The notes under the pieces are model-generated. The model saw only the letters and a list, made by a program, of their open reading frames with translations, made no database searches and was not told where the DNA came from. Positions 12,588-18,849 of a stretch of DNA of 64,000 nt are shown in pieces (positions within the stretch are counted from its first letter, which is position 1; every line of letters starts with the position of its first letter). The stretch lies in NCBI RefSeq assembly GCF_057098645.1, contig NZ_CM169472.1; one strand, 5' to 3'. Both the position numbers and the translations under genes were made by a program.

Positions 12588-14670
12588 ATGTCTAACGTGC
12601 AGGAGTGGCAACAGCTTGCCAACAAGGAATTGAGCCGTCGGGAGAAAACTGTCGACTCGCTGGTTCAGCAAACCGCGGAAGGGATCGCCATCAAGCCGCT
12701 GTATACCGAAGCCGATCTCGATAATCTGGAGGTGACAGGTACCCTTCCTGGTTTGCCGCCCTACGTTCGTGGCCCGCGTGCCACTATGTATACCGCCCAA
12801 CCGTGGACCATCCGTCAGTATGCTGGTTTTTCAACAGCAAAAGAGTCCAACGCTTTTTATCGCCGTAACCTGGCCGCCGGGCAAAAAGGTCTTTCCGTTG
12901 CGTTTGACCTTGCCACCCACCGAGGCTACGACTCCGATAACCCGCGCGTGGCGGGCGACGTCGGCAAAGCGGGCGTCGCTATCGACACCGTGGAAGATAT
13001 GAAAGTCCTGTTCGACCAGATCCCGCTGGATAAAATGTCGGTTTCGATGACCATGAATGGCGCAGTGCTACCAGTACTGGCGTTTTATATCGTCGCCGCG
13101 GAAGAGCAAGGTGTTACACCTGATAAACTGACCGGCACCATTCAGAACGATATCCTCAAAGAGTACCTCTGCCGCAACACCTATATTTACCCGCCAAAAC
13201 CGTCAATGCGCATTATCGCCGACATCATCGCCTGGTGTTCCGGCAACATGCCGCGATTTAATACCATCAGTATCAGCGGTTACCACATGGGTGAAGCGGG
13301 TGCCAACTGCGTGCAGCAGGTAGCATTTACGCTCGCTGATGGGATTGAGTACATCAAAGCAGCAATCTCTGCCGGACTGAAAATTGATGACTTCGCTCCT
13401 CGCCTGTCGTTCTTCTTCGGCATCGGCATGGATCTGTTTATGAACGTCGCCATGTTGCGTGCGGCACGTTATTTATGGAGCGAAGCGGTCAGTGGATTTG
13501 GCGCACAGGACCCGAAATCACTGGCGCTGCGTACCCACTGCCAGACCTCAGGCTGGAGCCTGACTGAACAGGATCCGTATAACAACGTTATCCGCACCAC
13601 CATTGAAGCACTGGCTGCGACGCTGGGCGGTACTCAGTCACTGCATACCAACGCCTTTGACGAAGCGCTTGGTTTGCCTACCGATTTCTCAGCACGCATT
13701 GCCCGCAACACCCAGATCATCATCCAGGAAGAATCAGAACTCTGCCGCACCGTCGATCCACTGGCCGGATCCTATTACATTGAGTCGCTGACCGATCAAA
13801 TCGTCAAACAAGCCAGAGCTATTATCCAACAGATCGACGAAGCCGGTGGCATGGCAAAAGCGATCGAAGCAGGTCTGCCAAAACGAATGATCGAAGAGGC
13901 CTCAGCGCGCGAACAGTCGCTTATCGACCAGGGCAAACGTGTCATCGTTGGTGTCAACAAGTACAAACTGGATCACGAAGACGAAACCGATGTACTTGAG
14001 ATCGACAACGTGATGGTGCGTAACGAGCAAATTGCTTCGCTGGAACGCATTCGCGCCACCCGTGATAATGCCGCCGTAACCGCCGCGTTGAACGCCCTGA
14101 CTCACGCCGCACAGCATAACGAAAACCTGCTGGCTGCCGCTGTTAATGCCGCTCGCGTTCGCGCCACCCTGGGTGAAATTTCCGATGCGCTGGAAGCCGC
14201 TTTCGACCGTTATCTGGTGCCAAGCCAGTGTGTTACCGGCGTGATTGCGCAAAGCTATCATCAATCTGAGAAATCGGCCTCCGAGTTCGATGCCATTGTT
14301 GCGCAAACGGAGCAGTTCCTTGCCGACAATGGTCGTCGCCAGCGCCTATTCCGATCTCGGTTTCGACGTAGATTTAAGCCCGATGTTCTCTACACCTGAA
14401 GAGATCGCCCGCCTGGCAGTAGAAAATGACGTTCACGTAGTGGGCGCATCCTCACTGGCTGCCGGTCATAAAACGCTGATCCCGGAACTGGTCGAAGCGC
14501 TGAAAAAATGGGGACGCGAAGATATCTGCGTAGTCGCCGGTGGCGTCATTCCACCGCAGGATTACGCCTTCCTGCAAGAGCGCGGCGTGGCGGCGATTTA
14601 TGGTCCTGGTACACCTATGCTCGACAGTGTGCGCGACGTACTGAATCTGATAAGCCAGCATCATGATTAA
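12588..14670 (+). pseudogene. scpA: methylmalonyl-CoA mutase ScpA/Sbm disrupted by a 62-bp frameshifting deletion near 14340
   Basis: ORF 12567..14399 (mutase body, ends in 19 out-of-frame residues) and ORF 14245..14670 (B12-domain C-terminus, 109 in-frame aa) are in different frames; 584 + 21 missing + 109 = 714 aa reference length. Confidence 0.85.
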
Positions 14671-15658
14671 TGAAGCCACGCTGGCAGAAAGTATTCGCCG
14701 CTTACGTCAGGGTGAGCGTGCCACACTCGCCCAGGCCATGACGCTGGTGGAAAGCCGTCACTCGCGTCATCAGGCGCTAAGTACGCAACTGCTTGATGCC
14801 ATTATGCCGTACTGCGGTAACGCCCTGCGACTGGGCGTTACCGGCACACCCGGCGCGGGGAAAAGTACCTTTCTTGAAGCCTTTGGCATGTTGTTGATTC
14901 GTGATGGATTAAAGGTTGCGGTTATTGCGGTCGATCCCAGCAGTCCGGTCACTGGCGGTAGCATTCTCGGGGATAAAACCCGCATGAATGACCTGGCGCG
15001 TGCCGAGACGGCGTTTATTCGCCCGGTACCATCCTCCGGTCATCTGGGCGGTGCCAGTCAGCGAGCGCGGGAATTAATGCTGTTATGCGAAGCGGCGGGT
15101 TATGACGTAGTGATTGTCGAAACGGTTGGCGTCGGGCAGTCGGAAACGGAAGTCGCCCGCATGGTGGACTGTTTTATCTCGTTGCAAATTGCCGGTGGCG
15201 GCGATGATCTGCAGGGCATTAAAAAAGGGCTGATGGAAGTGGCTGATCTGATCGTTATCAACAAAGACGATGGCGATAACCATACCAATGTCGCCATTGC
15301 CCGGCATATGTACGAGAGTGCCCTGCATATTCTGCGACGTAAATACGACGAATGGCAGCCACGGGTTCTGACTTGTAGCGCACTGGAAAAACGTGGAATC
15401 GATGAGATCTGGCACGCCATCATCGACTTCAAAACCGCGCTAACTGCCAGTGGTCGTTTACAACAAGTGCGGCAACAACAATCGGTGGAATAGCTGCGTA
15501 AGCAGACCGAAGAAGAAGTACTGAATCACCTGTTCGCGAATGAAGATTTCGATCGCTATTACCGCCAGACGCTTTTAGCGGTCAAAAACAATACGCTCTC
15601 ACCGCGCACCGGCCTGCGGCAGCTCAGTGAATTTATCCAGACGCAATATTTTGATTAA
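14663..15658 (+). pseudogene. argK: methylmalonyl-CoA mutase-associated GTPase ArgK/MeaB with premature amber codon at 15491-15493
   Basis: ORF 14663..15493 (276 aa, [28 protein letters not shown]-loop) stops at TAG; same frame continues LRKQTEEEVLNHLFANEDFDRYYRQ... to TAA at 15656-15658, giving the reference 331-aa length if read through. Confidence 0.85.
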
Positions 15659-17956: not shown

Positions 17957-18849
17957 TGACTCGTCCCGTCACGATCTTCAGCAATATGCTGAAGCATCGT
18001 GGCGGTATAACGATGATTTCTGATTGAATAAAGATATTCCTGCATATACATCGGCCTGTGCGGTGCATCAAAATATTTCAGCGTTGCCGGATTCACCAGT
18101 CGCCAGGCAAAATGCGGGATCACCGTCAGAAAATGTCCGCGCTCCACGGCGCTGATTTTGGCCATAAAACTGTAGGGACGATAAATAATGGTTGGATTGA
18201 TCCCACAAGGTCGCATATTCGCATCAATCATTGCTTCGAAGTTGGCCCGGTTCTGAAAGCGCATTTGTAGCCAGGGCAGCTCCTGAAGCAGCTCTTGCTC
18301 TTGACGCTCTTCATAACGGCGAGAAACGAGAAAGCCTAATCGCAGCGGTGGTAGTTCACTGATAGTCAGGTTTTCCAGTTCCTGAACTCGTGCAGATACA
18401 TGCTGTGGGGAGATAATAAAATCTAACTGACGGTCAAAAAGATTATCGATAACGCCGTTTTCGCTGAACTCAACTGGCTGGGCGGTCACGCCTTCATACT
18501 TATCTCCGAGACTAATCAACTGATCGAAAATAATTGTCGGATAAGTATTATCTATGCCAATCACAATTTCTCGTGAACGACGCCCTGAGTTATGGATTTC
18601 ATTATCAATCGCAGAAAGCCGTTGATAAACCGGGAACAGTTTTTAATACAGTTCCTGTCCGGCTTTATTGAGACTGATATTATTATCTTTACGGGTAAAT
18701 AGCGTATAGCCAATTTGTTCTTCCAGCGCGGCAATGCTTTTACCAAATGGCGAAGCCGTCATATGGATTTTTTCTGCCGCCCGGGCAATATTATTGGTTT
18801 GCGCTAATAAAATGAAATTGCGCATCTTTTTCGAAATAAAAATGTCCAT
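17953..18849 (-). pseudogene. ygfI: LysR-family regulator YgfI interrupted by in-frame ochre codon (TAA at 18643-18645, minus strand)
   Basis: HTH ORF 18643..18864 (MDIFISKKMRNFILLAQTNNIARAAEKIHMTASPFGKSIAALEEQIGYTLFTRKDNNISLNKAGQELY) and effector-domain ORF 17953..18564 are in the same frame, separated by one stop. Confidence 0.8.

Follow-up and report, generated by a model that had tools for sequence, protein, structure and literature searches.

The locus analysed here raises the question of why three out of five neighbouring genes are disabled, and whether a common cause accounts for their loss. It lies in a stretch of 64,000 nucleotides (the window) from the O145:H28 lineage of Escherichia coli. 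The orthologues of the sbm genes (scpA-meaB-scpB-scpC) are found in canonical order between argP and srsR, with PGAP names and synteny that match those of K-12. The K-12 "sleeping beauty mutase" operon (sbm/scpA-ygfD/argK-ygfG/scpB-ygfH/scpC) occupies the same locus, has its genes in the same order and is likewise flanked by argP upstream and by srsR, yggE and argO downstream; the region is 99.1% identical. scpA, meaB, scpB, scpC and srsR are all intact in K-12, as they are in 88-3493, AF10 and XDL, whereas scpA, meaB and srsR are disabled in O145:H28. The O145 strain RM9872, which has one mismatch to the window across positions 12000–19500, served as annotation reference; three pseudogenes are flagged by PGAP in its genome, namely scpA ("frameshifted"), meaB ("internal stop") and srsR ("internal stop"). 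The intact relative 88-3493 was the reference for mapping the lesions at base level. This alignment and the PGAP flags confirmed the position and the type of the three lesions reported in the preliminary description. Note that the window has one private base in this region, a SNP at 14607 that is at a synonymous position and irrelevant to the lesions. The probable answer to the question is that the half of the sbm operon dependent on cobalamin decayed step by step in O145:H28 and that srsR was knocked out separately.

The gene scpA (sbm; 12588–14670, plus strand) codes for the methylmalonyl-CoA mutase and measures 2083 nt in the window versus 2145 nt in intact relatives. Its alignment to 88-3493 and UTME-3 reveals that 62 bp, corresponding to scpA nt 1749–1810 (codons 583–604), are missing after position 14335. 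The lost segment is associated with an imperfect 9-bp direct repeat, TCGCC(C/A)GCG, present as the pair TCGCCCGCG...62 bp...TCGCCAGCG of which the second copy alone is kept (14336–14344, plus strand). The placement of the deletion is ambiguous over the 5-bp TCGCC and the lost bases are assigned here between 14335 and 14336. Bounding of the lost segment by direct repeats with retention of one copy is the organization that identifies a slipped-strand deletion. The 22 missing residues align with a near-identical segment of human MMUT. The GQDGHDRG cobalamin-binding motif, which holds the cobalt-coordinating histidine of this enzyme family, disappeared with them and the reading frame is shifted up to a premature stop at 14397–14399 (plus strand, from translation). 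The resulting product has 603 residues. The K-12 ScpA features an MM_CoA_mutase domain (residues 28–539) and a B12-binding domain (residues 586–701); the latter is lacking from the window's protein. Since the frameshift takes away the remainder of the B12-binding domain, no active mutase is predicted, and domain maps combined with established enzymology suggest that O145:H28 would be unable to make one. The new stop precedes the start of meaB by 264 nt, which uncouples the usual overlap between scpA and meaB.

The second lesion affects meaB (argK/ygfD; 14663–15658, plus strand), whose product is the G-protein chaperone of the mutase. Its codon 277 is changed from TGG to the amber codon TAG at 15491–15493 (G>A at 15492; W277*), yielding a product of 276 residues in place of the full-length 331-residue MeaB/ArgK; a P34S substitution is also present. 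The Pfam MeaB domain spans residues 22–294. The C-terminal dimerisation helices of M. extorquens MeaB are formed by residues 294–329 (PMC9974510) and, in the register given by alignment to this protein, W277* falls before them, the dimerisation region being absent from the product of the window. MeaB(1–276) has presumably lost its function, again as judged from domain maps and known enzymology. The third lesion is an ochre codon in srsR (ygfI; 17953–18849, minus strand), coding a LysR-type regulator. Codon 69 is changed from CAA to TAA at 18643–18645 (C>T on the coding strand; Q69*) and a 68-residue product results. The SrsR domains HTH_1 and LysR_substrate extend over residues 8–65 and 89–283, respectively, and Q69* therefore parts the DNA-binding from the effector domain.

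An error of sequencing or assembly at any of the three sites is extremely improbable. Among 5,426 complete E. coli genomes, 25 match a 49-mer spanning the scpA junction, and the 55-mers carrying the meaB W277* and the srsR Q69* alleles each match 26. The genomes with the deletion or the stops all belong to the O145:H28 cluster; they were sequenced by different laboratories in the USA, Japan, Canada and other countries. Public contigs (NCBI, ENA and Logan assemblies) also code for precisely these truncated products: 363 contigs for the 603-residue ScpA, named O145:H28, 454 for the 276-residue MeaB and 74 for the 68-residue SrsR. Such recurrence argues against an artefact, and so does the biological slippage signature of the scpA deletion. 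Disrupted in O145:H28, intact as orthologues in relatives and bearing the same lesions across independent assemblies, the three genes are real, fixed pseudogenes of this lineage, with lesions independent in type, and both the junction of the 62-bp deletion and the W277* and Q69* alleles provide clean markers for it. The order of events can be read from UTME-3, which carries both stops and an intact scpA; the stops thus predate the scpA deletion. No genome 99.7–99.9% identical at the locus is free of the stops, and the next relatives are found at 99.6%.

The concentration of lesions stands above background. In 175 kb of RM9872 outside the cluster, two of the ~180 features annotated are pseudogenes, and at this backbone rate (about 1%) the probability of at least three hits is roughly 1e-5 per five-gene run. 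In six intact genomes, where the genes are retained, pN/pS is 0.02–0.055, a value that denotes strong purifying selection. The nonsense and deletion lesions therefore indicate a lineage-specific loss of constraint. The branch leading to O145 and UTME-3 accumulated 6 synonymous, 2 missense and 2 nonsense changes in the five genes, a non-synonymous excess of about fourfold relative to polymorphism elsewhere (Fisher P = 0.05). Its 2 nonsense changes among 10 substitutions compare with 0.33–0.43 expected under strict neutrality (P = 0.04–0.07). The preliminary description had proposed relaxed or negative selection in this lineage. These data are best read as a relaxation of selection on the mutase and on its chaperone; with so marginal a nonsense excess, it is not possible to tell relaxed from adaptive loss. 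Note that some SNPs are clustered, three within 47 bp of srsR and four within 211 bp of scpA, and recombination may have contributed to them.

The two remaining operon genes are intact, in agreement with the initial observation. scpB (ygfG; 15669–16454, plus strand) codes for the 261-residue methylmalonyl-CoA decarboxylase and has no PGAP flag, and scpC (ygfH; 16478–17956, plus strand) codes for the 492-residue propionyl-CoA:succinate CoA transferase, likewise unflagged. Both proteins are 100% identical to those of 88-3493; the 8 sites at which scpC differs from that strain are all synonymous. Their integrity was rejected as a signal of selection: the probability that three hits distributed according to gene length spare the two genes is 0.26, and a single substitution, synonymous, occurred in scpB and scpC on the O145 and UTME-3 branch. 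With the predicted loss of the conversion of succinyl-CoA to methylmalonyl-CoA, ScpB would be left without a source of substrate, while ScpC may still work as a CoA transferase. Expression of scpB and scpC is probably lowered through polarity. The sbm operon was reported to be hardly expressed (PMC3850637) and the pathway to be incomplete, lacking an epimerase (PMC3850637, PMC5512728).

The view that the three hits strike one functional unit was sustained for scpA and meaB, an enzyme and its chaperone, and not for srsR. The regulator gene converges tail to tail on scpC and is not transcribed divergently from scpA. The targets published for SrsR from gSELEX and ChIP-exo do not include the sbm operon (PMC9181523; bioRxiv 10.1101/2021.12.22.473864). 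The SrsR box TCAGATTTTGC, searched with up to 2 mismatches, has no match in the argP-scpA spacer (12386–12587), and its 27 matches across the window compare with 24 expected by chance. Loss of srsR is also uncoupled from loss of the operon: O157:H7 and O55:H7 combine a srsR W193* allele with intact scpA, meaB, scpB and scpC, and strain 83972 keeps srsR and lacks the operon. srsR is a neighbour of the operon rather than a demonstrated member, although these negative results do not prove that it has no role in its regulation. This uncoupling and the lack of signs of regulation lead to a picture of two hits in one unit and one in a neighbour that is frequently lost.

Loss of sbm functions is not confined to O145:H28. 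Most of the operon is deleted in ~1,152 of the 5,425 genomes with a match (~21%), about 20% of it being left, and sporadic IS insertions interrupt it in other genomes. In the B2-type deletion of ~4.26 kb, ~1 kb from the start of scpA is fused to the final 153 nt of scpC and meaB and scpB are entirely lost, for instance in 83972 and ST131. Mutase function was thus lost independently at the same locus in the B2 strains and in O145:H28, by one large deletion in the former and by three small lesions that spare scpB and scpC in the latter. These deletions and insertions show that the operon is dispensable. The "silent" operon is strongly constrained where it is kept, and therefore must be useful in nature. 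As for srsR, parallel loss is found in the pathogenic lineages O157:H7, O145:H28 and ST131, unlike that of the operon, which O157:H7 and O55:H7 retain. The W193* allele is present in 845 genomes (O157:H7, O55:H7, ST131) and disables by nonsense the same regulator as Q69*, in a different codon and through an independent event; a stop common to O145:H28 and O157:H7 is accordingly rejected. ST131 has in addition S92*, and truncated SrsR is common in Shigella sonnei. Recurrent mutation to W193* was considered and rejected as well, because srsR nt 550–638 are identical in O157:H7 and ST131 and include three linked derived sites. This single shared haplotype block implies an old allele that spread once, either through recombination or by descent, and not repeated selection. 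Literature searches yielded no paper combining scpA, pseudogene and E. coli, and two papers on O145 are silent about these genes.

The order of events is shown by the alleles: two G:C>A:T transitions generated meaB W277* and srsR Q69* in an ancestor shared with UTME-3. Later, on the branch to all 25 complete genomes bearing the deletion, slippage between the 9-bp near-repeats 62 bp apart removed scpA codons 583–604. The probable cause is that purifying selection on the mutase module was lost in the lineage. It is proposed that the scpA deletion was neutral since, with MeaB lost, the mutase was of little use, and that the time elapsed has simply been too short for scpB and scpC to be hit. In host-restricted and pathogenic enterobacteria, loss of one gene is followed by an accumulation of several small disabling mutations in those functionally linked to it. 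The pattern in O145:H28 is similar on a tiny scale, that of an enzyme-chaperone pair and a neighbour in a genome for which no wider degradation is shown: a small domino decay in which the chaperone was lost first and the enzyme after. The losses are probably ordinary decay, a further case of lineage-specific pathway loss that is not special to O145:H28. Against this account it is observed that the sister lineage O157:H7 keeps its operon intact.

Were the three pseudogenes unrelated and adjacent by coincidence, no common cause would be needed. The absence of a documented link of srsR to the operon (PMC9181523) and the uncoupled losses in other lineages favour this explanation, and at a backbone rate of ~1% about 0.07 runs of three pseudogenes in five genes are expected across the ~5,400 genes of the genome. 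It is nevertheless very unlikely: MeaB is the dedicated chaperone of ScpA and loss of either removes selection on the other, pseudogenes are scarce among the sampled features outside the cluster, and two of the three hits fall on the same short branch. A different proposal is that inactivation of the mutase module, of SrsR or of both raised the fitness of O145:H28, the hits being selected rather than tolerated. Possible routes are the sparing of cobalamin for other enzymes, a reduced methylmalonyl/propionyl-CoA stress or rewired stationary-phase and biofilm responses. The nonsense excess slightly above strict neutrality leaves room for such selection, and three disabling events on a branch with just 10 substitutions in these genes, the independent loss of the operon in B2 strains and the variety of srsR nonsense alleles across major pathogenic lineages (Q69*, W193*, S92*, and the truncated form in Shigella sonnei) point the same way. 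An operon that is hardly expressed (PMC3850637) should, however, cost little; O157:H7 and O55:H7 occupy the same EHEC niche and keep its four genes; W193* reduces to one haplotype block; and a dispensable gene in neutral decay would be lost repeatedly as well. Adaptive loss is unlikely. So is its extended form, in which successful pathogenic lineages of E. coli and Shigella would have been repeatedly selected, as they emerged, for knockout of the stationary-phase regulator SrsR, the MeaB and ScpA losses being likewise favoured; that pathogenic lineages lose srsR time and again is the one lead that might merit experiment. In practice, the K-12 succinate-to-propionate route cannot be assumed in O145:H28, which bears on metabolic models and phenotype prediction for this food-borne pathogen.

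A run of thymines lies 78–84 nt upstream of the scpA ATG (12504–12510, plus strand). Among features of the argP-scpA spacer that could account for the change in its length, no promoter-like site was found, the single terminator-like hairpin being on the minus strand (12399–12419); the Rfam scan at the operon found no riboswitch or regulatory RNA. The run has 7 residues in the window and in RM9872, a variant shared with the B2-type strains 83972 and ST131, and 8 in all seven examined genomes with an intact scpA (UTME-3, 88-3493, O157:H7, O55:H7, K-12, AF10 and XDL). Elsewhere in the window, the statement that every other backbone gene is full length did not hold. An IS3-family element of 1,310 bp (36509–37818) interrupts codon 4 of a prohibitin-family gene, which is not known to have a counterpart in K-12. 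A hypothetical gene between speB and speA, annotated with an "internal stop" in RM9872, was rejected as a fourth pseudogene, its sequence being intact in the window (43342–44073).

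The region 12000-19500 has effectively 100% identity with E. coli O145:H28 chromosomes (RM9872, RM13514, RM13516 and others). Gene positions were taken from the NCBI PGAP annotation of RM9872, carried over to window coordinates, and coincide exactly with those of the preliminary description. The sbm operon codes the mutase ScpA (12588-14670, annotated as frameshifted), its chaperone MeaB, or ArgK (14663-15658, internal stop), the decarboxylase ScpB (15669-16454, intact) and the CoA transferase ScpC (16478-17956, intact). The LysR-type gene srsR, or ygfI, follows on the minus strand (17953-18849, internal stop). 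All three pseudogenes had already been flagged by PGAP, and GenBank already contains the truncated proteins under O145:H28 names; in the literature searched, no paper discusses the scpA, meaB and srsR pseudogenes of O145:H28. They are one more tidy case of lineage-specific pathway decay and no new kind of thing. The sole private SNP of 12000-19500 is a T at 14607 (A in all other compared genomes). It falls in the 3' portion of scpA, beyond the lesion that already kills the gene, and sets the window's strain apart from every complete genome listed.

The lesions were mapped by alignment of the window to 88-3493, a relative 99.6% identical with all genes intact, and to UTME-3, a strain carrying both stops and an intact scpA. 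The 62-bp deletion in scpA, the amber in argK and the ochre in ygfI, first read from the sequence alone, were all borne out at base level. In scpA, 62 bp are absent after 14335 (scpA nt 1749-1810, codons 583-604) and the shifted frame reaches a stop at 14397-14399. The lost segment opens with TCGCCCGCG and the sequence beyond it with TCGCCAGCG, and such short direct repeats bounding the deletion are the signature of replication slippage. K-12 ScpA features a catalytic MM_CoA_mutase domain (residues 28-539) and a B12-binding domain (586-701). The lost codons encode a 22-residue segment that aligns with a near-identical 23-residue stretch of human methylmalonyl-CoA mutase and includes a D-x-H-x-x-G motif, whose histidine would, as in this enzyme family, be the lower cobalt ligand. 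In meaB, codon 277 is changed from TGG to TAG (15491-15493), in a protein whose Pfam MeaB domain runs from residue 22 to 294. An in-register alignment of the E. coli protein with M. extorquens MeaB, which dimerises via C-terminal helices 294-329 (PMC9974510), shows that the 276-aa product is devoid of the C-terminal dimerisation helices. Codon 69 of srsR is changed from CAA to TAA (18643-18645, minus strand), just past the helix-turn-helix (residues 8-65) and ahead of the effector domain (89-283). The intactness of scpB and scpC also holds, as PGAP does not flag them and their protein sequences are those of 88-3493.

A sequencing or assembly artefact at the three lesions is excluded. Short queries with the variant inside every 28-base seed, searched against 5,426 complete E. 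coli genomes, found the scpA deletion junction in 25 genomes and the meaB and srsR stops in 26 each. The carriers are O145:H28/NM or strains 100% identical at the locus and the next closest genomes are merely 99.6% identical there; no O145:H28-like genome of the set is therefore without the stops, and the lesions are lineage-fixed. The additional stop-bearing genome is UTME-3, in which PGAP annotates an intact scpA and internal stops in meaB and ygfI; the two stops are thus older than the scpA deletion. The exact truncated proteins are also present on contigs of NCBI, ENA and Logan assemblies (ScpA of 603 aa on 363, MeaB of 276 aa on 454, SrsR of 68 aa on 74). All five genes are intact in K-12, whose functional alleles do not carry the lesions.

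The preliminary description attributed the lesions to relaxed or negative selection on the B12-dependent pathway. When changes are polarised with 88-3493, O157:H7 and K-12, the branch common to O145:H28 and UTME-3 has 10 substitutions in the five genes, namely 6 synonymous, 2 missense (ScpA D494N and MeaB P34S) and 2 nonsense. Its non-synonymous to synonymous ratio is ~4x the ratio seen in polymorphism elsewhere (Fisher P = 0.05), and strict neutrality predicts 0.33-0.43 nonsense changes versus the 2 observed (P of at least 2 = 0.04-0.07). This pattern fits relaxed constraint, and that part of the reading stands; for selection for loss it is at most a weak hint. The intact scpB and scpC, taken as part of the signal, are uninformative because three hits spread by gene length miss both genes with P = 0.26 and these genes took a single substitution, synonymous, on the branch. 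In favour of the operon being dispensable, ~1,152 of 5,425 genomes with a match (~21%) keep just ~20% of scpA-scpC. A ~4.26-kb deletion, equivalent to window ~13600-17800, leaves the initial ~1 kb of scpA joined to the final 153 nt of scpC, for example in 83972 and ST131, both B2 (2501-3557 and 2157-3212 of comparison loci L007 and L010), and IS insertions in the operon occur in a few further genomes. Published descriptions have the operon as hardly expressed by laboratory strains (PMC3850637) and its pathway as incomplete, the epimerase being missing (PMC5512728). Against dispensability, six genomes that retain intact genes give pN/pS of 0.055 for scpA, 0.053 for meaB, 0.033 for scpB, 0.023 for scpC and 0.045 for srsR, which is strong purifying selection. 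The operon is therefore useful where kept, and behind its loss in O145:H28 lies a change in constraint specific to that lineage. MeaB is described (PMC10481361, PMC9974510) as a chaperone loading and protecting the mutase cofactor. The most likely course would begin with truncation of MeaB, after which the mutase would be of little value and the slippage deletion in scpA tolerated and fixed in the O145:H28 clade; the knockout of srsR would be a separate event of the same early branch, and scpB and scpC, still open reading frames, probably suffer polarity.

The assignment of ygfI/srsR to the sbm functional unit is not supported by the evidence. Published SrsR target work leaves the operon unmentioned (PMC9181523; bioRxiv 10.1101/2021.12.22.473864), the reported SrsR box has zero matches in the argP-scpA spacer and chance-level matches window-wide, and srsR is convergent with scpC. 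O157:H7 and O55:H7 carry a different srsR stop (W193*) yet have an intact operon of four genes, and 83972 shows the reverse, operon lost and srsR kept, so that in other lineages the fates of srsR and the operon are uncoupled. The W193* allele is present in 845 of 5,426 complete genomes, among them O157:H7, O55:H7 and ST131; in ST131 it lies on a haplotype block common to O157:H7 and is accompanied by a second stop, S92*. A 96-aa SrsR fragment is common in Shigella sonnei (at least 1,000 contigs). srsR is a gene often lost in its own right, a recurrent pseudogene across E. coli. The T-run of the argP-scpA spacer (12504-12510) is T7 in every examined lineage with dead scpA (O145:H28, 83972, ST131) and T8 in 7/7 genomes with intact scpA, UTME-3 included, which may be coincidence or lost promoter constraint. 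Between rpiA and argP, a 76-aa "LysR substrate-binding domain-containing protein" (11120-11350, minus strand) looks like a conserved LysR gene remnant. It is annotated in 5/6 genomes (RM9872, UTME-3, 83972, K-12, ST131), appears only as a "hypothetical protein" at this position in 88-3493 and is unannotated in the O157:H7 record.

The three-pseudogene cluster is unusual, yet not overwhelmingly so. The background was taken from 175 kb of RM9872 annotation, where only 2 of ~180 features are pseudogenes outside the cluster; at ~1% per gene, at least three hits among five adjacent genes have P near 1e-5 per position, roughly 0.07 genome-wide. Nor are all other genes of the window full length: a 1,310-bp IS3-family element (36509-37818), absent from RM9872, splits a prohibitin-family gene at codon 4, with a 3-bp CAC target duplication. 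The element, presumably IS629-like, is bounded by inverted ends that start with TGAACCGCCCCGGG and contains an ALIL frameshift pseudoknot (37367-37483, minus strand); the interrupted gene is not known to have a K-12 counterpart.

At 20691-21620 the window carries an intact 309-aa ORF where RM9872 has a 12.5-kb P4-like satellite element and an IS (20922-32000 of comparison locus L004 and 1-1482 of L005); a second near-identical P4-like copy lies in RM9872 at tRNA-Sec, beside the LEE island (L013, 11233-21623). Between speB and speA, an accessory gene for a lipoprotein-like product (43342-44073, minus strand, 243 aa) is intact in the window and annotated with an internal stop in RM9872, a strain-level pseudogene difference inside O145:H28. 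Tandem ~300-bp repeats (8136-8435 and 8527-8827), 90% identical, each code the ibsC toxin together with a Sib RNA as antitoxin (SIB_RNA in Rfam, 8162-8312 and 8554-8704) and are a known type I toxin-antitoxin duplication.
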